Below are positions 4,436-62,391 of a DNA stretch of 64,000 bases, piece after piece; the stretch's first letter is position 1, and each line of letters starts with the position of its first letter. The stretch covers positions 4,305-68,304 of the forward strand of contig JAPLDP010000068.1 of assembly GCA_026391695.1 (NCBI GenBank). Reading direction: 5' to 3'. The position numbers and the translations under genes are program-made. The notes beneath the pieces were generated by a model. That model worked only from the letters and a program-made list of their open reading frames with translations. It made no database searches and was not told the DNA's origin. The stretch comes from Bacteroidota bacterium (GTDB lineage: Bacteria; Bacteroidota; Bacteroidia; Bacteroidales; JAGONC01).

Positions 4436-4440
4436 CCTCA

Positions 4441-4475
4441 AGCTGGAAGCTTGCAGCTTGTAGCTTGCAGCTTAT
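4441..4475. repeat. heptanucleotide tandem array, 5 units (AGCTGGA AGCTTGC AGCTTGT AGCTTGC AGCTTAT)
   Basis: Read directly from the sequence. It lies between the glycosidase stop (4435) and the symporter ATG (4489). Confidence 0.9.
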
Positions 4476-4488
4476 AAATATCATCCAT

Positions 4489-6282
4489 ATGATTCTAAAC
4501 CTTGCGGATTGGTCAATAATTGTTGCCTATTTCATACTCTCGTTGATTATTGGTATTATAGCTTCAAAGAAATCGGGGAAAAGCTATACCGAATTTTTTC
4601 TGTCAGGACGCAACATGCCCTGGTGGTTACTGGGTGTGTCGATGGTAGCAACAACATTCTCCTGTGATACACCGAACCTGGTCACTGACATTGTCCGTCA
4701 AAATGGTGTTGCCGGTAACTGGGCATGGTGGGCTTTCCTATTAACCGGAATGCTGACGGTGTTTATTTATGCCAAGCTATGGCGACGTTCAAAGGTGCTT
4801 ACTGACCTGGAGTTTTATGAGATACGTTACAGCGGTAAAATGGCTGCTTTTGTCCGTGGATTCAGGGCATTATACCTGGGTTTTTTCTTTAATATCCTTA
4901 TCATGGCCCTTGTGTCGCTGGCCCTTATTAAGATTGGGGCAGTGATGATGGGCTGGCCTCCAGCCTTGACAATGATCATCGCATTGGTCATAACTGCCCT
5001 TTACAGCACTCTTGGTGGATTGCGAGGAGTTTTATTCACGGATTTCTTCCAGTTTCTTCTTGCTATGGCAGGCGCTATTGGTGCTGCTTTAATTGTAGTA
5101 AGGTTACCTCAGGTCAATGGCATCCATGGATTGATCACAAATGTCGCTGTCATGCCGAAACTTAACCTGTTACCTGATTTTTCGAATAGAGATGCGCTTA
5201 TTACACTTTTAATACTCCCTCTGGCTGTTCAATGGTGGAGTGTATGGTATCCTGGTTCCGAGCCGGGTGGCGGAGGCTATATAGCCCAGCGTATGTTATC
5301 GGCCCGGTCGGAAAAAGGCGCTATAAAGGCTACATTAATTTTTAATGCAATGCATTACGCTCTTCGACCCTGGCCATGGATCATTGTAGCTCTGGCTTCA
5401 CTCATCGTATTCCCTGACATCGCATCGCTTCAGTCTGCTTTTCCTAATGCTGATCCTCATTTTGTTAAAAATGACTTTGCCTATCCGGCAATGCTAAGTC
5501 TTTTACCGAACGGATTTATCGGCATCGTTGTTGCATCTTTACTGGCAGCCTACATGTCTACTATTTCGACACATCTGAACTGGGGATCGTCATACATAGT
5601 CAACGATTTTTATAAGCGATTTATCAACCCTGCTGCTGGTGAAAAACGTCTGGTTCTGGTTGGACGGCTATCTATTGTATTTCTCATGATCATGACTGTA
5701 ATCTTCGCCCTGTTACTAAGCAATGCACTGCAGGCATTTAACATCGTTCTTCAGATCGGAGCAGGAACAGGACTTATCTTTATCCTTCGCTGGTTCTGGT
5801 GGCGTGTGAATGCATATAGCGAGATCACGGCCATGATCGTTTCCTTCGTAATCGCATTATATTTTCAGTTTATCCATCCCTTAACCGGATTACCAATACT
5901 CAGCACTGCAATGCAACTGGTTGTGGGCGTCGGTGTCACATCCTTTTCCTGGATATTGGTCGCTCTGACGACTAAACCAGCAGATACTAAAACACTTAGA
6001 AAGTTTTACCGACTTATCCAGCCAGGAGGACCAGGATGGAAAAAAGTGGTAAAACAGGCCAGAGCAGATAATGATCCTGTCGATACAAGTGACAAAGGCG
6101 GGTGGGATGTGCCAATTGGAATTCTTTGCATGGTGCTGGGATCCGTGTTCATCTACAGTATGTTATTTTCAATCGGAAACTGGATATATGAAGAATATAT
6201 GCTTGCAATAATACTAACAGCAATCGTTATAATCTCAGGATTTTTTTTGTTCCGGGTATGGAGGAAGCTTAAAATGGATTAA
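4489..6282 (+). CDS. sodium:solute symporter (SSS) family transporter
   Basis: Polytopic membrane protein with an SSS-type GGLRGVLFTDFFQF motif. The ORF-track start at 4465 is a TTG inside the heptamer array, so the ATG at 4489 (MILNLADWS) is preferred. Confidence 0.85.
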   Translation: MILNLADWSIIVAYFILSLIIGIIASKKSGKSYTEFFLSGRNMPWWLLGVSMVATTFSCDTPNLVTDIVRQNGVAGNWAWWAFLLTGMLTVFIYAKLWRRSKVLTDLEFYEIRYSGKMAAFVRGFRALYLGFFFNILIMALVSLALIKIGAVMMGWPPALTMIIALVITALYSTLGGLRGVLFTDFFQFLLAMAGAIGAALIVVRLPQVNGIHGLITNVAVMPKLNLLPDFSNRDALITLLILPLAVQWWSVWYPGSEPGGGGYIAQRMLSARSEKGAIKATLIFNAMHYALRPWPWIIVALASLIVFPDIASLQSAFPNADPHFVKNDFAYPAMLSLLPNGFIGIVVASLLAAYMSTISTHLNWGSSYIVNDFYKRFINPAAGEKRLVLVGRLSIVFLMIMTVIFALLLSNALQAFNIVLQIGAGTGLIFILRWFWWRVNAYSEITAMIVSFVIALYFQFIHPLTGLPILSTAMQLVVGVGVTSFSWILVALTTKPADTKTLRKFYRLIQPGGPGWKKVVKQARADNDPVDTSDKGGWDVPIGILCMVLGSVFIYSMLFSIGNWIYEEYMLAIILTAIVIISGFFLFRVWRKLKMD

Positions 6283-39328: not shown

Positions 39329-39356
39329 AAACAACAAAAAGACCCAGAAAGGGTCT
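39329..39356 (-). terminator. intrinsic terminator closing the outer-membrane operon
   Basis: Stem AGACCC/GGGTCT (39340-39356) followed on the minus strand by TTTTGTTGTTTT. Confidence 0.65.
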
Positions 39357-39403
39357 TTTAAAAAGTTCAGAAAAAATATCCGGATTTTAAAGAATCTTTT
39401 TCA

Positions 39404-40462
39404 CTATAAATTGAGTCGGATTCCGATTCTATGGACTCCCTCGAAGGGTTCCGTATCCGTATATGAATAGTCAACAGCGAAATTTGTTCCTTTTTCTTTG
39501 TTAAAAGGTACCTGAACAGAAAAACCAGCGCTGGGACCTGTAAAAACCGTGTCTCTGTTTGCGTCCTCGGTTATCCCGTCTTCATATGTGTAAGCACCTC
39601 TGAGCATCAGATACGATTTGAGCGAAAATTCCATTCCAAGGGTAACCTGATCTTTTGTAAAGGCATTGGATATAAAGTTACCGGCAAAAGTCAGGCGGTA
39701 GTCACCTGCAAAGTTTATATCATAAGCCGCACCAATATTGAGTTGGGATGGCAACTGGTATTTTGCTGCACGCTGTTCTACTGTAAACTGGCTTTCCTGG
39801 CCAGGGAGAAGTGTTCGGATCGATAGGCCATCACCCGAATATTTCATCGTAGGTCCCCAGTTTTTTAATGTAATACCGAAGTGAACATTTTCGGTCTCTC
39901 CTGTAACATACTGTATGCCAGCATCAATGGCAATTCCCTGGGCTGACATGTCGGAAATACTTTCGGAGATAATTTTGATCTGCATTCCGCCATATATGCT
40001 GTTTGAGAAAATCCTGGCATATGACAGGGAAATGTTCATCAGGCTGGGAGAGAAATTTCCAATGCCACCTTCAGGCAAATCAACAGTTGTGATAGGAATA
40101 TCTCCAAACATCATCGACATTACAGCAAGGCCCAGAACACCTGATTCACCGATCTTCTGGTTTAATCCAAATGCAAAGACATTGATTTCCGAACCTTTGA
40201 GCCATTGAGTATGGTTGAAGGCGATTTCGGTTCTTTGTGTAAATGCTGTTCCAGCCACATTGATAAACATGGATTCCACACCACGGACATTAGACGTGCT
40301 TGCATTGCCCCATCCAGCGCTTCGTCCCCATGGGTTAATCAATAATTCTGATGCACCAGCCTCTCCTGACCTGTCTTTATTCCCTGCAAACAGATCAGGG
40401 TCGGTGGAGGCAAAAAACCCAATCAACAGAACCACTGCGAGACATTTGATATATTTTTTCAT
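39404..40462 (-). CDS. PorV/PorQ-family-like outer-membrane beta-barrel
   Basis: Signal peptide. GASELLINPWGRSAGWGNAS...SMFINVAGTAF parallels the PorV signature ...LLIxPDARxxGMGD...NPAxLAF. Alternating beta-strand pattern ending in IRLNL. Confidence 0.65.
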   Translation of the reverse strand: MKKYIKCLAVVLLIGFFASTDPDLFAGNKDRSGEAGASELLINPWGRSAGWGNASTSNVRGVESMFINVAGTAFTQRTEIAFNHTQWLKGSEINVFAFGLNQKIGESGVLGLAVMSMMFGDIPITTVDLPEGGIGNFSPSLMNISLSYARIFSNSIYGGMQIKIISESISDMSAQGIAIDAGIQYVTGETENVHFGITLKNWGPTMKYSGDGLSIRTLLPGQESQFTVEQRAAKYQLPSQLNIGAAYDINFAGDYRLTFAGNFISNAFTKDQVTLGMEFSLKSYLMLRGAYTYEDGITEDANRDTVFTGPSAGFSVQVPFNKEKGTNFAVDYSYTDTEPFEGVHRIGIRLNL

Positions 40463-40527
40463 CGTATAACGGTTTATAATTTTATAATCGAATTCTTTAC
40501 GTTTTATAATGATATATTAGTCTTTTA

Positions 40528-43500
40528 TCAGAATGCATTAAAGTCGGGAGCCCTTAATGAACCAAACCACTTGATCACCCGTTCACCCACACCATTAGCC
40601 TTTATATGAATCAAATAAATCCCGCTGGCAATAGGAATACCCGCATGATTCTTCAAATCCCAGTCAATAGAAGTCTTCGTTTCATCCTTAGTGAATTGCC
40701 GTATCAGCGTTCCACTCATATTGTAAATGGTAACCGTACATTTCTGTGGTAAATTGACAATTTTAATGCGGTTATCCAGCTGGTCGGTTTCATATGGTGC
40801 ATACCCATAGTAAGGATTCGGAACTACATTGATCAGGTCAAGATCACTTTTAGCTTTTTCCATATTGTTGGCTGTAGTAGCAATTCCTTCAGTACTAAAA
40901 GAATAGGCCGGATAATAGCGGTTATACTTGATGTCGTCCGGGAGAATGTATGTGGAAGAATCCGGCATATATAATGTGTCCTGAAGATCGGTTGAGAAGT
41001 ATCTGAAATAGGGCTTAGCTACCAATATGCGGATCGTCACATCATTCGACAGCCATTCCTGACCTTCTATAGCCAAAGGTATATTAACCCACATGCAACT
41101 CGAGTAAATGAAATCCCTTTTGAATAGTGTGGTGATAGGTATAGCTTCCCTGAGTCTTCTGCCTGCATCATAGGCAGGAACATCATAGCTTGGATCGGTT
41201 TGTCCACTGAATGAAAACTTGCCTTTGGTATGGGCAAATACATAAATATAATGTTTACCTCCGAAGATCGCCTTGAGGTTCAAAGGATCAGTGAAGTCCC
41301 ACATGCGTGAGGAAGGATTCCATTTCATGTCGCGGCCATTGTTACCAACGAGCCATGAATCTTCGCTGAATACAATATTCAAACGTTCGCCGGTTTCCAG
41401 GTTAATGGCATATCCCGGGAACCATCCCATACCTGTTGGGCAAATGTAATTAGGATCATCCGGATTATTACTTGTATCAGCAAGTGCTGTCGGAGGAACA
41501 GGATTGCCATCTTTATCAACCGATGGAGCTGACCTGATATCGAATTGTCTGGCATTATTTTCTGACAGGGTAGGATCAGGGCACATCTCAATGACAGGGC
41601 TACGTGACCATTTGGATTTATCGGATGTAATAACAAGTTGGATGCTGGCCAGATCAGCCATTCTCATGTTATCCTTCGACCTGTTATTATCACCACCATA
41701 GGCAGGACCGGCAGAATTCTGGATATGGGATGCACACAGGTTATAGGGTGCCCAGGTACCCATTAATATGGTTTCATAGGCGCCGTCCGGGTCAAATGCT
41801 TGTCCGATCGGTGTGCCACTGCTTCCGACCTGAAGTCTCCAGTCATTATAGGCGGAGTTGTCAGGGTCGGTGAACGCACCGGCACGTATCCAGTTAGAAG
41901 CATACGGATAATCATCATCAGGAACGCCGGCTAACCAGCGCCGTGAACTATCTGCGTAAATCATACTGGCTTCAATCAAGCCATTGTTTGTTTCCAAAGG
42001 AACATATATGGGAGATTGCGTGTTCCCACTTGTCGTCTGCCCGACCTGGTACGTTCCGGGGTAATATACCTGGCTTAAGGTCACTGAAAGTCCCAGATCA
42101 AGGAAAAGCTGTTCATTTGGATATGAAATAACTGTATCTGATTTATAAACTTTTCCGGATGATTCGTCAACCAGCATCCAGCGGCAGATCCATTTGCTTG
42201 CTGTATCACCATCGGTATTCGGGACGCCGGTAATATTATAGAACCTGACAAGGTATAACGAATCAAATAAAATTTTAAAAGTGCCGGTTTTCACATTCAA
42301 TGGGTCAATAACACGCACTTCAACAGGACCTGAACCCGCTTCATATTCGGGTGTATAATTAATCGGATAATCACTTTTACCATATACATTGGGATTTATC
42401 GTATCGGTGATATCATATGGTGGCTGAGCAAGTATCTTCTCGATGCTGGCCTGGGTCATGATCAGTCTGTTGCCTCCATTACCCTGGCCGGCAAGACGTG
42501 TAACCTTCGGGATGTCACCATATTGTGAGTTGGCCTTGATATCGCCGACCTGAATGTGTGGAATAGCGGTATACATTTTAATATTTTTACGTCCTGCAAG
42601 ATAAGGTTCTTTTTGCCCATCAAGGCCGCTGACAGGTGGATCCTGTGCTCCCGGATCCTGGGAGTACTTCATAAATTGATTATAGCCATATGCCAAAGCT
42701 ATATAATAATATTGTTTATGATTAACCAAAGCTTCGCCGGTAAAGGCATCCTCGGTGATAGTGAAAGAATGAACAATGCCTCCGTCAGCGCCATTGACCT
42801 CCTCAACCGGAACGTTTGCTCCCAGGGCCTGGTCAAAATGAAAATTAACAAGTTGAGTAACGCTATTTTGCACATCACACTGAAAAACCTGACGGGCCAA
42901 TATGGGATCGAAGAGATCTGCAACAGAAACACTGGCATTGGCCAGTTGAAACACCTGATATCCTTCGAATCTGTATGTCGAGTCATACCTTTCGTCAGGA
43001 CCGAGCGAATCCGGGCTCTTGATGTTAGGATCGATCTCTTTATAGGATTCGTTGAAGTTGTTACCAACATCATTGGTTTTCCGGTTGGTGATATAGAATA
43101 TCAATGACTTGTCGACTTCACGGATAGTCAGGTCTGGTGCATTCGGACCACTGACGACCTGGAAACAGTTATCAAACAGAGACTGGCATTGATCATCGAC
43201 GACTCGTAATAATTCCACGGAAGCCCAGGGTCCTCCGGAGCCTGCTCTGGCCCAGGGGATCCCGACTGTGATATAATTGACCGCTCCGGGTTCAAGGCGG
43301 AATGGGCCTGCCGATTGCATAAAACGGCGGTCCTGGGGATTATTATTTGCAGTTACCTCAGTCCAGTATACAGGTCCATTGGGTGGATTTCCGGCGGTGC
43401 TCCAGAAGCAGGGATCCGAATCACCAGGGAACATGAAGTCACATTGGGGACCATAAGCACCTGCTGTCCTATGGGCATTGCCGCCATATTCCATTCGGGT

Positions 43501-44847
43501 GCCATCTCTCCATATGCCTCTGAGGAAATTATAGTACTCAGGAGCATAGGCTGGGTCAAACATATAAGGGGGAACACCGGAGTTGCTGTTATTGTGATAC
43601 ACAAACCTCCGCATACCAAAACGTTCATTGTCGACAATACCATCGCCAAAGTTCACCCCGTTAATAGCCATTTGGTCAAGAGTGTCAGGGCTTTTAATAA
43701 TTTCGCAATTGCTGCCTGTAAATTTTGGATTGTCTTTTCCATCCGGGTCCATATAAGGTCCCTGGAAAAAGTCAACGCCGATAGCCGGGGGCTGGTTTCC
43801 ATAAGCCCAGGCTTGTCCTGTGCCATCAGCAGCACGGCCATTGTAACAATAACCCAATCCCCGTAATACGTCGCAACCAACATAGTCGTCATTTGCATAA
43901 CCCAGGTCGGTGTCAACCCATTGGCTGAAATATGTATCCCTTAAAACAAAAGTGGACCTATTGATGATTTCATAGCTATAGAACGACATGTTATTGATTT
44001 GATCGTTGGTGGCGAATGCAAAAGCTTGTCCACGGATTTCAACACCAATAGGATCCCCTTCCGTTTCAGTATGAATATTTCCTTTATCATTAAAGACCCA
44101 CCACAAGGTCTGGTCGCCTTTGATGACCTGGTCAGCGAGGATACCTATACCTTCCATAGGTCTAATATCGCTTTTACACAAAGCGTTGGTAACGTCATAA
44201 TATGGGTAGTCTCCCTGGTTAGGATCATATTCTCCATTCTGATCACGGTCGAAAAAGGGAGCAAGATAGTAGCTCTGGTTTCTGGATACATCACCATGTG
44301 CAGGCCAATCCTTGATTTCGGGAGGGATTGTATAATTTGGATAGTCTTTTTTATTATCCCACCAGGCAAGGTATTCATCTATCATTTTGCGTGTCATTGG
44401 GAATAATTTATCCCATTTGGAGCATTCGTCGGCTGTAATAGCTGCTGTACCATCCACTGTAAGTGGTCCGGGCCAATAATCGTTACCTCCACCGAAGTTA
44501 GGTCCCTGGCGATACCGGAGAGCAGCCAGTTTCAACTGGTCGTTAACGTCGATACCACCCAGCCAGAGTGAAGCCGAGAACATGGACATTTTACCGGATC
44601 CTTTGGGTATCTCATAATCAGCCACTTCAAAATTCCACCACATGTCGCCACCGGTATTAATACGTGTTCTGATATTATTAATGTCCATATATTTAAAACC
44701 GGCCCCAGGTAAACATCCCGAAGCTGTAGACTTCAGTTGTGCTGTACGTTTTTGGCCTGATGGGACAGGCACTTTATCAGCATAACAAGTACCGTAAATG
44801 AGGATACCGGCCAAACATATCAGAAGATAACGGAGTATGCTTTTCAT
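40528..44847 (-). CDS. 1439-aa secreted orphan protein with T9SS-type C-terminal sorting-like domain
   Basis: Signal peptide. Long D/N/G/P/Y/W-rich body with no motif I can assign. The last ~100 aa (VVPNPYY...VTIYNMSGTLIRQF...ASGIYLIHIKANG...RVIKW) resemble a Por secretion tail, with an extra FGSLRAPDFNAF extension. Confidence 0.8.
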   Translation of the reverse strand: MKSILRYLLICLAGILIYGTCYADKVPVPSGQKRTAQLKSTASGCLPGAGFKYMDINNIRTRINTGGDMWWNFEVADYEIPKGSGKMSMFSASLWLGGIDVNDQLKLAALRYRQGPNFGGGNDYWPGPLTVDGTAAITADECSKWDKLFPMTRKMIDEYLAWWDNKKDYPNYTIPPEIKDWPAHGDVSRNQSYYLAPFFDRDQNGEYDPNQGDYPYYDVTNALCKSDIRPMEGIGILADQVIKGDQTLWWVFNDKGNIHTETEGDPIGVEIRGQAFAFATNDQINNMSFYSYEIINRSTFVLRDTYFSQWVDTDLGYANDDYVGCDVLRGLGYCYNGRAADGTGQAWAYGNQPPAIGVDFFQGPYMDPDGKDNPKFTGSNCEIIKSPDTLDQMAINGVNFGDGIVDNERFGMRRFVYHNNSNSGVPPYMFDPAYAPEYYNFLRGIWRDGTRMEYGGNAHRTAGAYGPQCDFMFPGDSDPCFWSTAGNPPNGPVYWTEVTANNNPQDRRFMQSAGPFRLEPGAVNYITVGIPWARAGSGGPWASVELLRVVDDQCQSLFDNCFQVVSGPNAPDLTIREVDKSLIFYITNRKTNDVGNNFNESYKEIDPNIKSPDSLGPDERYDSTYRFEGYQVFQLANASVSVADLFDPILARQVFQCDVQNSVTQLVNFHFDQALGANVPVEEVNGADGGIVHSFTITEDAFTGEALVNHKQYYYIALAYGYNQFMKYSQDPGAQDPPVSGLDGQKEPYLAGRKNIKMYTAIPHIQVGDIKANSQYGDIPKVTRLAGQGNGGNRLIMTQASIEKILAQPPYDITDTINPNVYGKSDYPINYTPEYEAGSGPVEVRVIDPLNVKTGTFKILFDSLYLVRFYNITGVPNTDGDTASKWICRWMLVDESSGKVYKSDTVISYPNEQLFLDLGLSVTLSQVYYPGTYQVGQTTSGNTQSPIYVPLETNNGLIEASMIYADSSRRWLAGVPDDDYPYASNWIRAGAFTDPDNSAYNDWRLQVGSSGTPIGQAFDPDGAYETILMGTWAPYNLCASHIQNSAGPAYGGDNNRSKDNMRMADLASIQLVITSDKSKWSRSPVIEMCPDPTLSENNARQFDIRSAPSVDKDGNPVPPTALADTSNNPDDPNYICPTGMGWFPGYAINLETGERLNIVFSEDSWLVGNNGRDMKWNPSSRMWDFTDPLNLKAIFGGKHYIYVFAHTKGKFSFSGQTDPSYDVPAYDAGRRLREAIPITTLFKRDFIYSSCMWVNIPLAIEGQEWLSNDVTIRILVAKPYFRYFSTDLQDTLYMPDSSTYILPDDIKYNRYYPAYSFSTEGIATTANNMEKAKSDLDLINVVPNPYYGYAPYETDQLDNRIKIVNLPQKCTVTIYNMSGTLIRQFTKDETKTSIDWDLKNHAGIPIASGIYLIHIKANGVGERVIKWFGSLRAPDFNAF

Positions 44848-44882
44848 ATCTATATATTTTATGATTTTCGTGTTATTATCGA

Positions 44883-47800
44883 TTAAAAGTTGAAGCTAAT
44901 GCCAAACCGTATCTGGCGGGGTGAACTATAATTATAAGGATTTGCTACAGCCATGGAGTACATATCCCGGTATGATTCAGCATTCAATTGCTGGTTGATC
45001 TGTGTTTGCCATTCAGCTGCAGAGAGATAGCCATCATCATCAGGATTTCCAGTAGCAGCGTATACACCCATTACATTCTTCGAATTCAGGACATTCAGAA
45101 TCTGGAAGAAGACATTCAGGTAGGCATTTTTAGCGTTGTCACCTTTACCCATTGCAAAGCCAAAGTCTCTGTCGATTCTCATATCAATCCTGAATTGCCA
45201 GGGAAGACGTGAGCCATTGATAGAGCCTTTGATGGCTCTGCCGGCAGTACTGATCAATGACGGATAAATAGTAGCTGATCTGGTATAGGGTGTGCCGGAT
45301 CCGCCAAACATAGTAACATTAATTCCTGTATTCTGGAGCCAGTAAATATTCTTGGTTTTACCGGTCTTTTTTGAAGTTTTGGATGTCACAGGCCCGTTAT
45401 ATTCGTTCCCTTCACCCCAGCGGTAGTCGAGAGAAATATTAATCCTGTGTCTCTGGTCAATATCTAATGGATTGAGAGTTCTGAGATTTGGCTGTCCGGA
45501 ACGGATAAAAGCGGCAGCTGTATTTGGGTCGGAACCGGTGCCATCTGCAAACTGCAAGGTATAGCTGGCCCTCAACCTGGCATTGGCTGTGCGTCTGAGA
45601 TCATACGTTACCGTCAATCCCTTGATTGTACCGAAGTCAAGATTATTCCAGGAATAATAAGTCTTCGGGTAAGCGCCTGTGAATCGATAACTCTGTATCT
45701 GGTCTCTGACTTCACGGTAAAATGCCGAGAGGTTAATGGATGAAGAGGCACTCAGCTTCTGCTGGAATCCAAGTTCATAATCAATGGTTTTTTCAGGCTT
45801 GAGATTAGGATTATTAATGGTTGGATTACTCCGCACGGGCCAGAAATAATAGTCGGTGGGAGTGGAAAAAAAGTTACTGGTTGGCCGCTGTGTTAAAATA
45901 TCATAGTGAGCATAGAACAATGCCTCATCTGAAATAGGGAAAGAGAAAGCAATTCTGGGCATCACATTGATTGACGGATCATAGTCGGCAAATGCCCCTC
46001 CGCTGACAACCTGATTGTCGGGATTTACAAGGTAAGGCGATATGCCGTTGCCGACGTCAAGGGATTCCTCAGGGTCAACAACAACAGCTCCCTGGGCATT
46101 ATACCACACATTACCATTTCTGTATCCCGTTATAGTCGTCGGGTTATTCACATTGTCGACATATACGATATAGTCGGAACCCATATTTGACGGGTGTAAT
46201 CCCAAGTCATTGACTTCTTTCACCGTTTTGGCTTCATAAAGCAGATAAGGATCCTTTAACACTTTCTGGTTGGCATCGAAACGGTCAACACGGACGCCAA
46301 CATTGAAAATCAGATCCTTGAATGCAAAGACATCCTGCAGATATCCAGCCATATAAATCGGTTCATAGGCACCGATATCCCTGGAATAATTCCCATTGGC
46401 GTCTTTTTTAGTAAAGAAATCTTCAAAACTGGGACGGGTAGTCAGTTTATTACCATAAGCATCGTAACCATAATAGGCGACAATCTGATCGCCGTCATTA
46501 AGTAGTTCATCCGGGCTGAACATGTTGATATTCAGGCCACCATCAATATATGCCAACCGGTGGTTTCCTTCTTTATCATAGTAATAAATTGAATTGGTAT
46601 TCGGATCATAAGAATCAACGTCAATCCAATCAGTGCCGTCGACAGCCAATCCCATTTTAGCCCGGATGCTTTTATCGAAGTAGTATTGGGTTTGTGGGTC
46701 ATATCTGCGGTAATAATTTATAGTATCCTGGAACACTCCCTCAAGGTAAACGGGCATAGGATTAGCGAGGTCAAGCTCCCTGATGTGCCAGTTGGTGAAA
46801 CCGCGCATCACTGTCCATAAGCCTGTAGGGCCGATATTCCAGCCACTGTAGCTTCTTTGCTGATATTGAATGCCGAATTGAAGGGCATGGTTGCCGATGT
46901 CGGCCGATCCTAACACATCAATACCTATCTGTGCTGATTCATTTTTTCCGAATCCTGTCTGGAGGGTACCGACATTTGCATAAAGTCCATAAATGTTATC
47001 GGGTCCGCGGCCATTGATCAGGCCACCCTCACCGGTGACCACTGCTTCCTGGTTATAGATATTCTGATGCATTTCATAATACTGTGTAGTATAATTTGCC
47101 AGAATAGAGTTGATTTCCGACCTTTCAAAAGCAAACAGGGTATCCTGGAAATTATTCATCAGGTGGGCGTAAAGACCCGCGACAGAGTCGTATTCAAGGG
47201 TAGGTGTATAGGACTTGATTTTGTATGTTGTAAATTTCCCTATGTAACCGTAATTAAAGAAATTCTCCAGATGGTCGGCATCTTCGCTTTTTCCAGTGAC
47301 TTTAGAGTAGTCGGCCTGAATAGTATAAAAGACATTCTTGATTTTGGATTTACTGTCGCTTTCGGTTGGGAAGCGTTGTGTGAATTTTCCAAAGACCCTC
47401 CAGGTCATATTTTGGTATGACCCATTTCTGTCGTAATTGGTGAGGGAATGATAATAATTGAAGCCATGGCCGCTGTTATAGCTCAATGTGCCTCCGAATG
47501 ACAGGTTGATATTTGGTCCTGTCCTGACGTCCAGTTTTGCAGTTACATTGGCGCCGAGATTGGAGGAATTGAGGGTTGTATTAATATGTGTTAAATCAGA
47601 TTTAGTAAGAAAGAGTGATTCATAATATGTTCCATAACCTAAACCTGTAGGGCGGAGAGGCCTGGTTTCAAGCTGGGCCTGTTTGTCATCGTTAACCTTA
47701 TAAAGGCCTTCGGTTGATGGAGCGCCGTCCTTATTATATATGACGTCACCGGCGATAAAATAACCCAGAAGGGAAACGGGATTTTTTGGGTCTTTACTTT

Positions 47801-48578
47801 TAATGAGAGGTCCGTTAAGATTCAATCCGACACGGTTAGATCCATAATAGTCGAGGTATTGTGAAGTCTGCGCCTCGATGCCCATGCCGAAAATTCTGGA
47901 GGGTCCCTTGGTTGTAACATTGATAATACCTCCTGTAGCATCACCATATTGTGCCGAGATACCGCCAAGGACAACCGATACCTGGTCGATAGCAGATTCG
48001 GGGAGTGCAGATGAACCAGTTACACGGATACCGTCAATATAGGTGACAGTATTATCGGAACGCTGACCACGGATACTTCCGACTTCTCCGTCTCTGGAGA
48101 AGACACCACCCACCGTGGTAGCAACAGCGGCTGCAGAACGGTTGGGCATTTTGGCAATTTCTTCGGACGTCACCGTGGCCCCTGATGAAGTCTGGTCCTT
48201 GTTGATAAGAGGGACTTTGTAATCGACAACTTCAAATGTCTCAAGGGTAGTCGCAGTTACTTCCATCTCAATGTCATTGAATGTGATTTTATCAGCCCTG
48301 ACATTGACACCAGTGATCTTCATGGGTCTAAATCCGACATAGGTGGCTTTGACATCATAAGTGCCGGGGATAATGGGCTTAATCGTGTAATTCCCTTCAA
48401 AGTCGGATGTTGCACCCCCCTTCTGTGCGCCTGCAACTTCAATAATAATATTGCAAAAAGGAATAGGTTCTTTAGTGTCTCTGTTGATAACCTTTCCCTT
48501 TAGTGTCCCTGATTGTGAAAAGGCTAACAGGCTCGCACCTAATAAAAAGCAAAAAGTAAAGAGTAAATTTCTCATCAT
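44883..48578 (-). CDS. 1231-aa TonB-dependent receptor-like outer-membrane barrel with carboxypeptidase-regulatory-like N-domain
   Basis: Signal peptide. CarboxypepD_reg-like GTLKGKVINRDTKEPIPF...GTYDVKATYVGF. Plug-like SIRGQRSDNTVTYIDGIRV...GGIINVTTKGP. Terminal OMP signature RQIRFGISFNF. Confidence 0.85.
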   Translation of the reverse strand: MMRNLLFTFCFLLGASLLAFSQSGTLKGKVINRDTKEPIPFCNIIIEVAGAQKGGATSDFEGNYTIKPIIPGTYDVKATYVGFRPMKITGVNVRADKITFNDIEMEVTATTLETFEVVDYKVPLINKDQTSSGATVTSEEIAKMPNRSAAAVATTVGGVFSRDGEVGSIRGQRSDNTVTYIDGIRVTGSSALPESAIDQVSVVLGGISAQYGDATGGIINVTTKGPSRIFGMGIEAQTSQYLDYYGSNRVGLNLNGPLIKSKDPKNPVSLLGYFIAGDVIYNKDGAPSTEGLYKVNDDKQAQLETRPLRPTGLGYGTYYESLFLTKSDLTHINTTLNSSNLGANVTAKLDVRTGPNINLSFGGTLSYNSGHGFNYYHSLTNYDRNGSYQNMTWRVFGKFTQRFPTESDSKSKIKNVFYTIQADYSKVTGKSEDADHLENFFNYGYIGKFTTYKIKSYTPTLEYDSVAGLYAHLMNNFQDTLFAFERSEINSILANYTTQYYEMHQNIYNQEAVVTGEGGLINGRGPDNIYGLYANVGTLQTGFGKNESAQIGIDVLGSADIGNHALQFGIQYQQRSYSGWNIGPTGLWTVMRGFTNWHIRELDLANPMPVYLEGVFQDTINYYRRYDPQTQYYFDKSIRAKMGLAVDGTDWIDVDSYDPNTNSIYYYDKEGNHRLAYIDGGLNINMFSPDELLNDGDQIVAYYGYDAYGNKLTTRPSFEDFFTKKDANGNYSRDIGAYEPIYMAGYLQDVFAFKDLIFNVGVRVDRFDANQKVLKDPYLLYEAKTVKEVNDLGLHPSNMGSDYIVYVDNVNNPTTITGYRNGNVWYNAQGAVVVDPEESLDVGNGISPYLVNPDNQVVSGGAFADYDPSINVMPRIAFSFPISDEALFYAHYDILTQRPTSNFFSTPTDYYFWPVRSNPTINNPNLKPEKTIDYELGFQQKLSASSSINLSAFYREVRDQIQSYRFTGAYPKTYYSWNNLDFGTIKGLTVTYDLRRTANARLRASYTLQFADGTGSDPNTAAAFIRSGQPNLRTLNPLDIDQRHRINISLDYRWGEGNEYNGPVTSKTSKKTGKTKNIYWLQNTGINVTMFGGSGTPYTRSATIYPSLISTAGRAIKGSINGSRLPWQFRIDMRIDRDFGFAMGKGDNAKNAYLNVFFQILNVLNSKNVMGVYAATGNPDDDGYLSAAEWQTQINQQLNAESYRDMYSMAVANPYNYSSPRQIRFGISFNF

Positions 48579-48888
48579 ATCAGTTGGTATTATTTTTTAT
48601 GCAAAAATTTTGGAACCATTGAGAGCCGGTAAAGTTAATAATAAAAATATTTTTCAACCAAAATATTTTAGTCACGAGTTTCAAAAAACCACCAAATTGT
48701 CTGAAAAATATATTCGTTTCACCTGCTATATTCAGCTGGTGAGGACTTGAACACTTCATGTTTAGGTTTGTTTAGATCCGTTCAAATAGCGGGTAAAGAT
48801 ATGATAAATGCAAAATAAATAAAAGGATTAACAAGTTTTCGGTTGGAGCAGGTCAGTTACCGGCTACTATCGGAATATCTTGAACAGC

Positions 48889-49638
48889 TTATAGATGACT
48901 GATGACTTTCATGATTTGTTCCCTTTTTCTTCGCGATACAGGTATTTTAGCACCATCCGACATTTGTATATAACCTCCGTCATGTTTAAAATAAGTGGAA
49001 ATATATTTTGTATTGACGAGGTGAGATTTATGAGTACGGATAAAATTGTGATCACGCAGCAGTTCCTCATTTTCTTTAAGCGTTTTGGATATCAGGAGTG
49101 ACTTGCCGTCGGTGAAATAAAAGCGTGTATAATAATTATCCGATTCGCAACGGAGTATATGATCAACTTCCACAACATGAATCTTGTCGGCTGTTGACAA
49201 AACAATCTTGTGTGGTTTTTCACCCGGAGCCCGGATGTTTTCAAGCAGTACCTGTATGTTTTTATTGATCTGGGCTGTTATTTTCTTTTTCTCAGCCTTC
49301 TCAACCGAATTAATGAGTTCTTCAGGGATAACCGGTTTCAACAGGTAATCAAGTGCACTGTATTTTATAGCCTGAATGGCATACTGATCAAAAGCGGTCA
49401 CAAAGATGATCTCAAAATCAATCTTTTTAAGTCCTTCCAGCAATTTAAATCCACTGCCGTCGGGCATCTGTATATCCAGGAAAACGATGTCAGGATGCTC
49501 CATATATATAGCTTCCAGGCCGGTTTGTACGCCATCAGCCTCCGAAATGACCTCGACTTGATGGCAATATCGTGATAACAGGGCTTTCAGCGTATCACGT
49601 GATGTCTTTTCGTCCTCGATAATAATTGCTTTTAACAT
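48889..49638 (-). CDS. LytTR-family response regulator
   Basis: Receiver domain (DIVFLDIQMPDGSG) plus a C-terminal LytTR DNA-binding domain (FIRTHKSHLVN). Confidence 0.9.
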   Translation of the reverse strand: MLKAIIIEDEKTSRDTLKALLSRYCHQVEVISEADGVQTGLEAIYMEHPDIVFLDIQMPDGSGFKLLEGLKKIDFEIIFVTAFDQYAIQAIKYSALDYLLKPVIPEELINSVEKAEKKKITAQINKNIQVLLENIRAPGEKPHKIVLSTADKIHVVEVDHILRCESDNYYTRFYFTDGKSLLISKTLKENEELLRDHNFIRTHKSHLVNTKYISTYFKHDGGYIQMSDGAKIPVSRRKREQIMKVISHL

Positions 49639-49721
49639 GAAGATGTGTCTTATCGTGTAAAAGTAAATATTTTTTAATAAAGCATAGCAATGTTTTGAAG
49701 ACCTGGCCAGACAATGATCAA

Positions 49722-52700
49722 TTAACTTTCTCTATAAGCCATGCGTAATTCGACTCTGGTGCCGGTCGGATGATCATTCTCATCCTTCAGATCGATGACT
49801 TCAATCGAGAAGTTCTCATTATTTTTCCTGTGAAGAACCTCAAGACGTTCCATGGTGATCAGCATGCCTCTTGATTTGCGCTGCAAACCTGATTCCTTCT
49901 GGATCTGCATCGCTCTCTCCCTTCCTATTCCATTATCCTCAATGATCCATAGGATCGAGTTATCCTCTAATTTCAGTGCAATCTTTATATGTCGGTCACC
50001 TTTCTTATGCATAAGGCCATGAATGATAGCGTTCTCAACATAAGGCTGAACAATCATCGGTGGAACCTCTGTGAATTCTTCATCTATTGCAGGATCGACA
50101 TGAATTGTATAGGTGAATTTATGCTCAAATCGTAACATCTCGATATCCAGATAATATCGTAAGGCCTTAAGTTCTTCTTCTATAGAAATGGTAGCTTCTG
50201 TGGAATGGGTGAGGATCAGCCTCATCAGCTGTGAGAATTTTCCAAGATAATTCACAGCCATATCAGTATTTTTTGTGAGAATGAAGCTCTGTATTGAATT
50301 TAATGTGTTGAAAATGAAATGAGGGTTCATTTGCAGGCGCAAGGCCTGTAATTCTGTATCATATAATTGTTTTTCGATAGCCAGAACTTTTTTCTCAACT
50401 TCATGACGATTGCGTATGATTCTGATTCGCCTGTTGATCAGATACCAGAGGGTGAATATGGCAACTAATAAAACCGGGATTAGGAAAAACCATGTATGAT
50501 ACCAGTGTGGTTTGATGATGATGGTCAGAGTAACACCTCTATCATCCCAAATCCCATCATTATTTGATCCCATGACCCGGAAGTAATAGATCCCGGGCCT
50601 GACATTTGTGTAATCGGCAAATCGTTTATCCGAGGTAACACTAGTCCACATCTTATCGTAATTTTCAAGGATGAACTGGTATTTGTTTTTAGCAGGATTA
50701 GTAAAATCCAGGGCTGAAAATTCGATGGTGAAAAAGTTGTTGTTGGCTGAAAGCCTGATCCTTTGTCCATCATTGAATTCACCTTCAATTTCGCGGTTGA
50801 AAACCTTGAAAGATGTGATAACGGTTTTAGGTTTCAAAGGGTTTGTTTTTATTTTTGAGGGTTGAAAGAGATTAAAACCGTTCATTCCTCCCACATACAT
50901 TTCACCCTGGTCATTCTTATAGTAGGCACCCAGATTAAACTCATTACTTTGGAGTCCATCCTGAATGTCATAATTGATAAAGGTTTCTTTGCGAGGATCG
51001 AATTTGGATAATCCCCAATTGGTGGTCAGCCATAAGAAGCCATTTTCATCCTCCATGATGCTATATATGACATTATTGGGCAAACCATCTTTTTCGGTAA
51101 AGTATGAAAATTTACCCGATTCTTTATCAAAACGGTTTAATCCCCCGCCTTTGGTCCCTACCCAGAAAATTCCCCCTGAATCCTGGCACATGCAGAAAAC
51201 CTCCCTGGCATTTGGTCCGTTAGGATGACCCTGTTCATAACGGAAAGAAACGAATTCATGAGTGTCCCTTTTATACAGGTTAAGCCCGTCGCCAGTTCCT
51301 AACCATAAGTTCTTTTCCCTGTCTTCATAAATAGTCCATATCAGGTTACTGCTAAGGCTTGTGGGATCTTCTGGATTATTTTTAAAGGAAATGAATTTGT
51401 TTGTTGCCCGGTCGAACAAGTTCAAACCACCATGTCCTGTGCCTATCCAGAGCAAACCAAAGCTGTCTTCATAGATCGACAGCACATTATTACTGCTAAG
51501 ACTATGTTTATCCTTGAGATTATGTTGGTAGTGGGTAAATTTGCTTTTCAGCGGATCATAACATTCAAGACCATCATTTTGAGTGCCTATCCAGAGCAAA
51601 CCCGATTTATCCCCGGTGATTACCCGGAGATTATCACTGACAAGGCTTTTGATATCGCCGGGGATGTGCATAATATGCCTGAACAGACCGGTCTTACGAT
51701 CCAGTATATTAATACCGTTGTTTGTAGCAATCCAGACTTTCTGGTTTTTATCCTCATAAAGCGACATGATATAATTGCTGTTCAGGGAGTTATCATCATT
51801 GGAAATATTCCGGTACACCGAAAACTTACTGGCATGCCTGTTGAATTTATTAATGCCAATAAATGTACCGATCCATATAGTTCCAACGCGGTCTTCATAA
51901 ATGCATAAAACTCGATTATCGCTCAAACTGTTCACATCATAACCCTGGCGGTCATATTGAACGGATTCGCCAGTTGAAGGATTAAAAATTTTCAATCCCT
52001 TACCATCTGTTCCTAACCATAAGAAGTGCTGACTGTCTTCATAGAGGGTGTTAATAACAAAAACATTTTGGTTTTCCGCGATTTCTGCCGGCTGAAAATA
52101 GTTATCAAAGGAAAAGTCGGTCAGATTAAGCTTTCCTAACCCTCTGTTGGTGCCAGTCCATAGGTTTCCATTATGATCGCATAAGATAGATTTTACAAAA
52201 TTATCCGGTAAACTGTGATTATCATCCTGTTTATTATAGAGGCGGGTCACTATCAAGGTTTGTGTATCAAGCCGGATAAGGCCAATGCGAGTGGCAATCC
52301 AAAGAAACCCCTGACGGTCAAAGCATAGGCTGTTGATATAATTACTTTTAAGTGGCGTGTTATCTATCGGTTTATTCAAATAGGATTCAAACAGTCCGGT
52401 CTTCTTGTCGAATTTACTTAATCCACTCTGAGTACCAATCCAAAGGCAGCCTGTGCTGTCTTCGATGATAGCTGTGATGAAATCATTAACAAGGCTCCCT
52501 GGGTCGGATGGATTATGTTTGAATTCAGTGAAATCATTAATGGTTCTATCGTATTTGTCTAAACCTTCATCGGTGCCAATCCATAGATAGCCTTCACTAT
52601 CCTCGATCATACAATTAACTGTCTGTCCGCTGATTTTATTTTCCTTGTCGAAAATAATGAACCTGTAGCCGTCATATTTATTTAAACCGTCCCATGTGCC

Positions 52701-52910
52701 AAACCACATGTATCCTGTTTTATCCTGGAGTATACACTGAATGGAATTTTGGGAAAGTCCCTTTTCAATTTTAATGTTTTCAGATGTTATTCTTTCGAAT
52801 TTAATATTTTCAAGATCCTGGATCTGTGCTAAACCGGCAGGGACAGTGAGCAAAAAAATCCCAATCAGAGTAACTGATAAAGCGATTTTAATTATCCACC
52901 ACCGTATCAT
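49722..52910 (-). CDS. sensor histidine kinase with double beta-propeller + Y_Y_Y periplasmic sensor and LytS/YehU-type kinase core
   Basis: 14 repeats of the two-component-regulator propeller motif (G.LWIGT..GL..[FY]D), a Y_Y_Y segment (YYFRVMGSNNDGIWD), one TM helix, the His_kinase box LQMNPHFIFNTLNSI and an HATPase region IIEDNGIG. Confidence 0.9.
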   Translation of the reverse strand: MIRWWIIKIALSVTLIGIFLLTVPAGLAQIQDLENIKFERITSENIKIEKGLSQNSIQCILQDKTGYMWFGTWDGLNKYDGYRFIIFDKENKISGQTVNCMIEDSEGYLWIGTDEGLDKYDRTINDFTEFKHNPSDPGSLVNDFITAIIEDSTGCLWIGTQSGLSKFDKKTGLFESYLNKPIDNTPLKSNYINSLCFDRQGFLWIATRIGLIRLDTQTLIVTRLYNKQDDNHSLPDNFVKSILCDHNGNLWTGTNRGLGKLNLTDFSFDNYFQPAEIAENQNVFVINTLYEDSQHFLWLGTDGKGLKIFNPSTGESVQYDRQGYDVNSLSDNRVLCIYEDRVGTIWIGTFIGINKFNRHASKFSVYRNISNDDNSLNSNYIMSLYEDKNQKVWIATNNGINILDRKTGLFRHIMHIPGDIKSLVSDNLRVITGDKSGLLWIGTQNDGLECYDPLKSKFTHYQHNLKDKHSLSSNNVLSIYEDSFGLLWIGTGHGGLNLFDRATNKFISFKNNPEDPTSLSSNLIWTIYEDREKNLWLGTGDGLNLYKRDTHEFVSFRYEQGHPNGPNAREVFCMCQDSGGIFWVGTKGGGLNRFDKESGKFSYFTEKDGLPNNVIYSIMEDENGFLWLTTNWGLSKFDPRKETFINYDIQDGLQSNEFNLGAYYKNDQGEMYVGGMNGFNLFQPSKIKTNPLKPKTVITSFKVFNREIEGEFNDGQRIRLSANNNFFTIEFSALDFTNPAKNKYQFILENYDKMWTSVTSDKRFADYTNVRPGIYYFRVMGSNNDGIWDDRGVTLTIIIKPHWYHTWFFLIPVLLVAIFTLWYLINRRIRIIRNRHEVEKKVLAIEKQLYDTELQALRLQMNPHFIFNTLNSIQSFILTKNTDMAVNYLGKFSQLMRLILTHSTEATISIEEELKALRYYLDIEMLRFEHKFTYTIHVDPAIDEEFTEVPPMIVQPYVENAIIHGLMHKKGDRHIKIALKLEDNSILWIIEDNGIGRERAMQIQKESGLQRKSRGMLITMERLEVLHRKNNENFSIEVIDLKDENDHPTGTRVELRMAYRES

Positions 52911-53060: not shown

Positions 53061-53068
53061 TACTTTTG
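53061..53068 (+). promoter_or_regulatory. -7 promoter box TACTTTTG
   Basis: Exact TAnnTTTG match 18 nt upstream of the ATG at 53087. The ORF-track TTG start at 53066 lies inside the box. Confidence 0.5.
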
Positions 53069-53086
53069 CAGTTGACAAATAAATAC

Positions 53087-53566
53087 ATGTTAAAATCCAT
53101 TTTCATTATTTCGCAAAGGATAATTACGGGAGGCGTGCTGTTATCCATTGTTCTGATATTACTTGTGATGCCTTTTTGTCATAAGAATAGCGGACCTGAT
53201 ATCCCTACAGCGTATGTGAATATCTATCTGCGTCCCAATAGCATGGATTATATTGAGGATGGAGGATGGGTATATGTTACAGCAAATACTCCCAGTCGCG
53301 GTATTATAGTTTACAGGTTATTTCATGAGAGTTTTAAAGCTTATGAACGAACTTGTACTTATGATCCGGACGGCTGTTGCACATCCTCGCCTGTTTATAC
53401 CTGCTCCAGGCTTATTGTCGAACCATCCGGGCTCACAATCCTTGACACATGCTGCAATTCACAATTCCTGATCACCGATGGAACACCCTTTAACGGACCA
53501 GCAACCTATTCGCTGAAAGAATACAATACTGAATATGACGGTGAGGTGCTGCACATTTTTAATTAA
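53087..53566 (+). CDS. membrane-anchored Rieske-fold-like protein lacking the histidine ligands (Cys-rich)
   Basis: GGWVYV...RGIIVYRL...FKAYERTCTYDPDGCC...LDTCCNSQFLITDGTPFNGPATYSLKEY follows the Rieske domain template, but CxH is CTY and CPxH is TCCN. Confidence 0.6.
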   Translation: MLKSIFIISQRIITGGVLLSIVLILLVMPFCHKNSGPDIPTAYVNIYLRPNSMDYIEDGGWVYVTANTPSRGIIVYRLFHESFKAYERTCTYDPDGCCTSSPVYTCSRLIVEPSGLTILDTCCNSQFLITDGTPFNGPATYSLKEYNTEYDGEVLHIFN

Positions 53567-62310: not shown

Positions 62311-62318
62311 ATTCGCCG

Positions 62319-62391
62319 AGCCACTCAAGGGATTCGAACCCTCGACCTATTCATTACGAGTGAATTGCTCTACCAGCTGAGCTAAAGTGGC
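62319..62391 (-). tRNA. tRNA-Thr (anticodon CGU)
   Basis: Manual cloverleaf fold of a 73-nt sequence: acceptor GCCACTT/GAGTGGC, D arm GCTC-AGCTGGTA-GAGC, anticodon arm ATTCA-CTCGTAA-TGAAT, and T arm GAGGG-TTCGAAT-CCCTT. CCA is not encoded. Confidence 0.9.

Follow-up and report, generated by a model that had tools for sequence, protein, structure and literature searches.

Described Systems Closest to the Locus

In the T9SS (type IX secretion system) attachment complex, PorU keeps its C-terminal domain (CTD) and remains on PorV, PorZ keeps its CTD to bind PorQ, and cognate PorV-like barrels have been proposed to protect CTDs (PMC10202324). The subject of this analysis is a locus of a Bacteroidales genome (assembly GCA_026391695.1) in which a large CTD protein is likewise encoded next to a barrel of this kind. 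Within a 64,000-nucleotide stretch of contig JAPLDP010000068.1 (hereafter the window, in whose positions coordinates are given), a barrel resembling TonB-dependent transporters (TBDTs), a 1439-aa protein with a T9SS sorting domain, here called BIG, and a 352-aa barrel of the PorV/PorQ family follow one another on the minus strand, downstream of a two-component system (TCS). PorU-PorV, PorZ-PorQ, SprB-SprF (type B) and this locus all pair a dedicated PorV/PorQ/PorP-family barrel with a large CTD protein. The present barrel is, however, none of PorV, PorQ and PorV2, and BIG is neither PorU nor PorZ; moreover, the pair stands in an apparent operon with a TBDT, under a TCS, and retention of the CTD, which acts as the anchor in the described pairs, would here be a prediction modelled on them.

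The locus also recalls the polysaccharide utilization loci (PULs) built on SusC and SusD, in that a TBDT with a CarboxypepD_reg domain is co-encoded with a surface-exposed partner, which here would be BIG, and in that the periplasmic Reg_prop/Y_Y_Y sensor is of a type found in Bacteroides glycan sensors. It departs from them in several respects: the barrel is not SusC/RagA according to hidden Markov models (HMMs), there is no SusD-like lipoprotein, the partner is instead a 1439-aa T9SS cargo with its own PorV-like barrel, and the locus contains no degradative enzymes. Regulation differs as well, with a separate kinase and LytTR protein in place of the sensor-kinase-receiver-AraC fusion of the Bacteroides hybrid two-component systems, and with AraC/HTH models unmatched.

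The three-gene pattern itself has a counterpart in the alginate locus tonB-hypA-hypB of Rhodothermus marinus, whose annotation lists in succession a TonB-dependent receptor, a protein with a T9SS type A sorting domain and a gene of the PorV/PorQ family, the triad not being discussed (PMC9530828). This is a likeness of annotation and length only, the PorV/PorQ gene measuring 1,056 nt there and 1,059 nt here; the middle gene of R. marinus is half the size (2,181 nt) and sits among alginate lyases. Given this annotated triad and the established tethering of PorU by PorV and of PorZ by PorQ, the claim of the initial annotation that no system of this composition had been described was overstated. 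The parts are all of known kinds, while the combination and the BIG family are undescribed apart from that one uncommented annotation, and our literature searches found no paper on the mechanism of the trio or on the BIG family.

A Conserved Three-Gene Unit

The six-frame list of open reading frames (ORFs) contains five minus-strand ORFs with exactly the coordinates annotated initially, separated by 83, 310, 35 and 65 bp, and Pfam and NCBIfam agree with all the domain calls made for them. From the first gene to the end of the unit, the features are:

49722-52910, minus strand: sensor histidine kinase, 1062 aa, with Reg_prop, Y_Y_Y, His_kinase (PF06580) and ATPase domains
48889-49638, minus strand: LytTR-type response regulator, 249 aa (Response_reg 75.2 bits, LytTR 69.5 bits)
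44883-48578, minus strand: TBDT-like outer-membrane barrel, 1231 aa, with signal peptide, CarboxypepD_reg domain, plug and long barrel (Pfam)
40528-44847, minus strand: BIG, 1439-aa signal-peptide protein with beta-sandwich domains (structural model) and a T9SS type A CTD (HMM match at 40591-40770)
39404-40462, minus strand: PorV/PorQ-family outer-membrane barrel, 352 aa (NF033709)
39337-39359, minus strand: intrinsic-terminator hairpin AAAAGACCC-TTTCT-GGGTCTTTT with a 9-bp stem containing 4 GC pairs, followed by a T-run, which closes the unit

By scanning one genome per species, we identified at least 591 loci encoding BIG relatives, fetched 80 of these and analyzed 81 loci with their flanks. 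The fetched loci all come from Bacteroidales-type metagenome-assembled genomes (MAGs; Lentimicrobiaceae, Prolixibacteraceae and others), the closest showing 78% identity, which assigns the window to a Lentimicrobiaceae-like bacterium. Searched by tblastn with the proteins of the window, all loci on sufficiently long contigs had the TBDT, BIG and PorV-like genes on the same strand and in the same order, an order also seen in L001 and three more distant loci. The intervals are short throughout (19-107 bp from TBDT to BIG and 28-121 bp from there to the PorV-like gene), the TBDT lying directly upstream of BIG at 49-74% identity, and the three proteins are approximately 48-78% identical to those of the window. 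Mean residue conservation reaches 0.58 for the TBDT, 0.56 for BIG and 0.61 for the PorV-like barrel, as compared with 0.71 for GreA, which in these alignments indicates strong constraint on the trio for surface proteins. Two contigs labelled 'Omnitrophica WOR_2' (L012) and 'Chlorobi bacterium' (L084) display the same ahcY...TBDT-BIG-PorV-like-greA-HIT synteny at about 50-59% identity and probably represent MAG contigs that were binned or labelled wrongly.

The stem-loop terminator proposed initially held up, both in the window and among relatives. A hairpin with a T-run (dG <= -6) follows the PorV-like gene in 69 of 72 gaps between this gene and greA, which makes greA a separate unit, and in 25 of those gaps its dG lies between -13 and -24 kcal/mol. 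Among relatives whose proteins are approximately 50-60% identical, the hairpin is even kept at the sequence level (AAAGGACCCTT-loop-AAGGGTCTTTT), and, being located some 40 nt upstream of greA, it might also serve as a greA leader or regulatory element. No convincing internal terminator was found in the window unit.

The unit is flanked by housekeeping genes, namely greA and a HIT gene downstream and a 166-aa ORF (ORF166), ahcY, metH and metF upstream. Given that greA, HIT, ahcY and ORF166 come close to the trio in their synteny, conserved order alone is no proof of shared function, and the three genes might form no functional unit at all, having stayed neighbors in a core region that is rarely rearranged. 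We regard this as quite improbable: the genes share one strand and short gaps, a promoter lies upstream of them and a conserved terminator follows the third alone, the insertion of a TCS and its operator falls exactly upstream of the three genes (see below), and a similar triad occurs in an unrelated locus of another phylum-level lineage, R. marinus.

BIG Has a T9SS Sorting Domain and Belongs to a Large Family

The C-terminus of BIG, initially described as being of a sorting type, proved to be type A: TIGR04183 matches residues 1360-1419 with 29.6 bits (cut-off 23), Pfam PF18962 remaining below its cut-off (20.8 against 27) and the type B sorting model being unmatched. With the hydrophobic N-terminus (residues 1-23), BIG thus has the sequence features of a T9SS type A cargo. 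No domain other than the CTD was found in Pfam or NCBIfam, and searches of these databases and of the PDB, together with a fold search, placed BIG in no characterized family, as the initial annotation had supposed. The protein is not an orphan, as had also been stated, but the member of an unnamed family of more than 7,000 clusters. A search with residues 1-1200, which exclude the CTD, against representatives at 50% identity returned 7,396 clusters when the limit was E<=1e-3 and 2,179 when it was E<=1e-30, with members as distant as Chitinophagaceae; Pfam holds no model for this family. Among relatives, BIG is 48-78% identical over its full length, and more than 100 residues, mostly in the N-terminal 800, are invariant across 138 sequences.

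A first AlphaFold model of residues 1-1200, built on 37 close homologues, had a pLDDT of 56.7 and gave antibody-like noise in the fold search, and was discarded. The model obtained from a diverse 56-sequence alignment (pLDDT 83.4, pTM 0.66) is nearly all beta and comprises several sandwich domains. Foldseek comparison with the PDB gave weak matches only (best E=8e-4, TM 0.16-0.22), to a dextran dextrinase (GH15-like), GH94 phosphorylases, GH116, GH63 and GH65 enzymes, an arabinanase and polysaccharide lyases. Because the model is almost helix-free, BIG appears to lack the (alpha/alpha)6 catalytic barrel of the matched enzymes, and the part shared with these glycoside-active enzymes is presumably their beta-sandwich accessory domain, the aligned query region not being reported; this is a mild hint, at the level of the model, that BIG may bind carbohydrate. 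Viral structures matched FN3-like phage proteins only, and sequence and profile searches of the PDB gave nothing except the CTD of PorZ (5m11, E=0.17). BIG was also considered as PorU and as PorZ, and set aside as either: no peptidase/C25 or PorU model matched it, and the PorZ model covers the CTD region only (32.4 bits against a cut-off of 260).

The CTD of BIG does not end at its last canonical strand (…VIKWFG) but continues into an extra stretch of approximately 10 residues, conserved as xLRxxD(F/L)NxF with an aromatic end (40531-40560 in the window, minus strand), the complete tail motif reading ...KWFGxLRxxD(F/L)NxF. It is possible that this tail is a specificity determinant for the private PorV-like barrel.

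A PorV/PorQ-Like Barrel Outside the Known Groups

The 352-aa protein belongs to the PorV/PorQ family, as annotated initially: NF033709 (PorV_fam) matches residues 37-352 with 141.7 bits against a cut-off of 90, and no FadL/Toluene_X Pfam model matches at E<=0.01. It nevertheless falls below the equivalog cut-offs of PorQ (70.7/220), PorV (55/250) and PorV2 (48.4/325), which points to a separate clade of paralogues. The PorP/SprF model TIGR03519 is below its cut-off as well (20.7 bits against 90.55), and PF11751 gives a weak 28.8 bits (cut-off 22.3), far under the PorV_fam score. No PDB relative was found by sequence, a homologue search returned orthologues only (62-97% identity), and there is no second PorV-like paralogue in the window or in approximately 2 Mb of related loci.

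A CTD protein paired with a PorV/PorQ paralogue mirrors the attachment complex introduced above, and BamG, a FadL-like barrel of 14 strands, keeps an extracellular subunit in place within the BAM complex of Bacteroidota (PMC12578637). These precedents would fit a role of BIG and its barrel as an accessory of T9SS or outer-membrane biogenesis or of attachment, for instance in cargo processing, glycan or lipopolysaccharide (LPS) handling or surface-layer assembly, with the TBDT as a structural platform instead of an importer of nutrients. The module is also single-copy, unusually conserved and located in the core genome between ahcY and greA, and the NCBIfam PorZ model does pick up the CTD region of BIG. 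That match stops at the CTD, however, and no PorU (C25) signal was found; control by a ligand-sensing TCS and the existence of tandem BIG paralogues near glycoside hydrolases (see below) are both more typical of substrate-specific systems, and the strong conservation of the TBDT plug argues for a working TonB-gated channel. On balance, we consider a biogenesis function unlikely.

A TonB-Dependent Barrel That Is Not of the SusC Type

The 1231-aa protein has the plug, the barrel and the C-terminal aromatic residue (...RFGISFNF) of TonB-dependent transporters in general, with Pfam scores above the cut-offs for CarboxypepD_reg (45.6 bits), Plug (37.5, cut-off 23.9) and TonB_dep_Rec_b-barrel (37.0, cut-off 27). 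The SusC/RagA model TIGR04056 is absent from its NCBIfam hits at E<=0.01, so that the SusD partner which the initial annotation had expected of such a transporter does not apply to it, and the two adjoining downstream genes, BIG and the PorV-like gene, have no SusD match in Pfam. Solved structures match the TBDT by sequence in its N-domain only.

A long TBDT with a CarboxypepD_reg domain, not of the SusC type, lacking a SusD partner and tied to a secreted protein resembles, in its general domain build only, Oar of Myxococcus xanthus, for which a role in secretion of the protease PopC is documented (PMC6434023). The barrel might, as Oar does, work outward and export or release BIG or another product. 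This appears very improbable, given that BIG carries its own T9SS signal and hence needs no other exporter, and that the TBDT resembles ordinary importers in its plug and barrel. Oar is implicated in PopC export in an organism without T9SS.

A Two-Component System with a Predicted Operator

The kinase scores 240 bits with Reg_prop over 10 stretches, 47.7 with Y_Y_Y and 81.1 with His_kinase. As hydropathy places transmembrane (TM) helices at residues 1-31 and 803-827, on both sides of the sensor, the Reg_prop beta-propeller and Y_Y_Y region of approximately 770 aa is predicted to be periplasmic. The regulator, whose nearest NCBIfam models, BtsR and LytR, each remain under their cut-offs, combines a receiver (REC) with a LytTR domain, which together with a PF06580-type kinase defines a LytTR two-component system. 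Such a kinase and regulator lie directly upstream of the module in 31 related loci (regulator 52-76% and kinase 32-60% identical) and are absent from 30, in which ORF166 and ahcY abut the module; on the BIG tree, this distribution requires at least seven gains or losses. Their presence in only about half of the related loci makes the TCS an accessory rather than a defining part of the system.

A k-mer comparison of intergenic regions singled out AACTGAT, found in 19 of 32 TCS loci and in none of 32 loci without TCS. It resolves into two copies of CCGnnAACT(G/T), mostly with ATT next (box sequence CCGnnAACTGATT), and in the window the following elements lie between the regulator and the module:

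48833-48863, minus strand: putative LytTR operator, direct repeats CCGGTAACTG (48863-48854) and CCGAAAACTT (48842-48833) with starts 21 bp apart (comparative)
48794-48801, minus strand: -7-like promoter element TATCTTTA, approximately 37 nt past the start of box 2

Defined as two boxes with at most one mismatch each and starts 21 bp apart, the pair occurs in 21 of the 32 intergenic regions of TCS loci (the window and 20 others) and in none of the 32 upstream regions without TCS. The stricter pattern CCGnnAACT-N12-CCGnnAACT has a single match in the 64-kb window even when two mismatches are allowed, and in 16 loci it is found once per locus, always between regulator and module. In the aligned TCS loci, TAnnTTTAC is kept at a fixed distance downstream of box 2; it resembles the Bacteroidetes -7 consensus, TAnnTTTG. 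A scan for sigma-70 promoters was uninformative (50 sites against 42 expected).

This layout agrees with that of described LytTR targets. ComE-type promoters contain two 9-bp repeats with a 12-mer between them (PMC4005675), AgrA binds a pair of direct repeats immediately upstream of the promoters that it controls (PMC4227749), and the 21-bp repeat phase is the same as here. AgrA, ComE and BtsR-type regulators likewise combine REC and LytTR and work with PF06580-type kinases (LytS, BtsS, YpdA); the present system differs from theirs in its huge beta-propeller periplasmic sensor, which replaces a polytopic membrane sensor, in its box (CCGnnAACTGATT) and in its target, an outer-membrane module in Bacteroidota. 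The restriction of the operator pair to TCS loci and its ComE/AgrA-like layout make a dedicated regulator of the window's module, acting through the predicted operator, well supported by sequence comparison. Of the claim that the module has its own LytTR system, the wiring to operator and promoter therefore stands, while as a general feature it applies to about half of the related loci.

A Fourth Gene and a Second BIG Architecture

In most relatives, 640-940 bp separate regulator and TBDT and accommodate an ORF of 140-190 aa on the same strand. An HMM built from this ORF detected it in 65 loci, irrespective of the TCS, directly upstream of the TBDT and between it and the promoter (e.g. L024:4162-4641 and L003:5693-6169). 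The small product, a single-pass membrane protein, has its TM helix at the N-terminus and shows a lysine-rich stretch, a middle part that is acidic and of low complexity, and the conserved C-terminal motif F(D/N)LRKAVIYSEILNRPY, also written RKAVIYSEILNRPY; it matches no Pfam family. The gene is absent from the corresponding interval of the window (48579-48888) and from its closest relative, L002, and comparison of the loci indicates that both have lost it. A pseudogene was looked for in the 310-bp gap, and no remnant was found. Hence the five-gene module initially proposed is best restated: the trio stands as a unit, the TCS is accessory, and most relatives add a fourth gene that is lost here.

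In more distant genomes, BIG also occurs in another setting. L082 (8001-16403) has two tandem BIG paralogues without a TBDT or PorV-like gene, and in L083 (4460-16166, from a complete 5.4-Mb genome) and one further assembly, two BIG genes come after an SSF transporter, a stand-alone receiver and a Reg_prop/His_kinase kinase, in this order. Tandem BIG genes of the latter type adjoin GH97, GH172 or GtaA-like genes, again without a TBDT or PorV-like gene, and these glycoside hydrolase neighbors point towards glycans. Over its full length, the L083 kinase shares 35% identity with that of the window, within the range of orthologues in the first architecture (32-60%), which suggests that the recurrent pairing of kinase and BIG is older than either arrangement.

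Tandem genes for T9SS-secreted S-layer proteins exist elsewhere, such as TfsA/TfsB of Tannerella, and the tandem BIG paralogues recall them. Together with the absence of a TBDT next to these paralogues, and with the multi-domain beta-sandwich/FN3-like build of BIG, in which no catalytic domain is recognizable, this would be compatible with a structural adhesin or S-layer-like coat anchored on the PorV-like barrel, the TBDT being linked to it only by conserved synteny or shared regulation, with no substrate handed over directly. On the other hand, a TBDT is adjacent at 19-107 bp in every locus that reaches far enough; adhesins and S-layer proteins usually evolve fast, unlike BIG with its 48-78% identity and more than 100 invariant residues; and the sensor type of the kinase points to a soluble periplasmic ligand. 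We therefore hold a purely structural coat to be rather unlikely.

A Putative Sus-Like Uptake Module Built on a T9SS Protein

The initial annotation saw in this locus a surface capture and uptake machine whose giant cap protein is delivered or tethered by its cognate barrel; the observation as a whole is confirmed, and the interpretation partly supported. The account that we favor, while granting it somewhat less than an even chance, is that of an inducible Sus-like uptake module with a T9SS-exported surface partner held by a private PorV paralogue. The beta-propeller/Y_Y_Y sensor of the kinase would detect a periplasmic ligand, most likely a breakdown product of the polymer handled by the system, probably a glycan. 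The kinase would then phosphorylate the LytTR regulator, which as a tandem dimer would bind both boxes 21 bp apart and activate the promoter just downstream, giving a single transcript that would encode the TBDT, BIG and the PorV-like barrel. Sec would take BIG through the inner membrane, and its type A CTD would let it pass the outer membrane by T9SS. Rather than being released or sorted to anionic LPS, it would retain the uncleaved CTD and dock through this domain, with its special tail, on its own PorV/PorQ paralogue, a step modelled on PorZ on PorQ and PorU on PorV. Displayed beside the TBDT, possibly in a physical complex with it and the barrel, its beta-sandwich domains may bind, and possibly process, a substrate for TonB-energized import.

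Several observations speak against this account. BIG is not strictly dependent on a TBDT or PorV-like gene in cis, as the paralogues of L082 and L083 do without them, and the kinase and regulator are missing from half of the relatives. The candidate TonB box of the TBDT, LETFEVVDY, located between CarboxypepD_reg and plug, is poorly conserved in 65 orthologues. The Bacteroidales module lies among housekeeping genes (ahcY, metH, greA, HIT), not among degradative enzymes, and the very high conservation of BIG is unusual in a substrate-binding surface protein. Finally, the fold matches of BIG are weak, and neither a catalytic site nor a defined binding site was identified in it.

Should the account hold for this locus, it may extend further: with less confidence still, we suggest that a widespread and unrecognized class of uptake machines in Bacteroidota and Rhodothermota combines a TBDT with a T9SS protein docked by its uncleaved CTD on a private PorV/PorQ paralogue, BIG being the most conserved cargo of the class.

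Other Features of the Window

ORF166 (53066-53566, plus strand) is divergent from the module and encodes a protein of 166 aa that has a TM segment at its N-terminus and is rich in Cys in its C-terminal half. It has no Pfam match, and almost all loci keep it in synteny with the module, with or without TCS, at 35-78% identity. At 1748-6282 (plus strand), genes for an 895-aa protein (CHB_HEX_C, Fn3_assoc and F5/8 type C domains), a sodium:solute symporter, a nucleotidyl transferase and an APH-family kinase follow one another and may form a small sugar-salvage cluster. The sole RNA gene found by Rfam and ARAGORN in the window is a tRNA-Thr (CGT) at 62318-62391 (minus strand). As metH is nearby, the region upstream of the TBDT was considered for a riboswitch, of the cobalamin or another type, and Rfam finds none in the window.

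Implications

If the favored account is correct, T9SS would not be confined to the secretion of enzymes and adhesins but would also assemble fixed partners of TonB-dependent transporters, and Bacteroidota would have a second route, besides surface lipoproteins, to Sus-like machines. The idea of cognate PorV-like barrels would extend from PorQ-PorZ and SprF-SprB to this type A cargo, and one of the many PorV/PorQ paralogues that are still unassigned would gain a role. It would also offer a first functional handle on the BIG family, which is common in Bacteroidales of anaerobic digesters and sediments. The defined putative operator and promoter provide a direct experimental switch for finding the inducing substrate.

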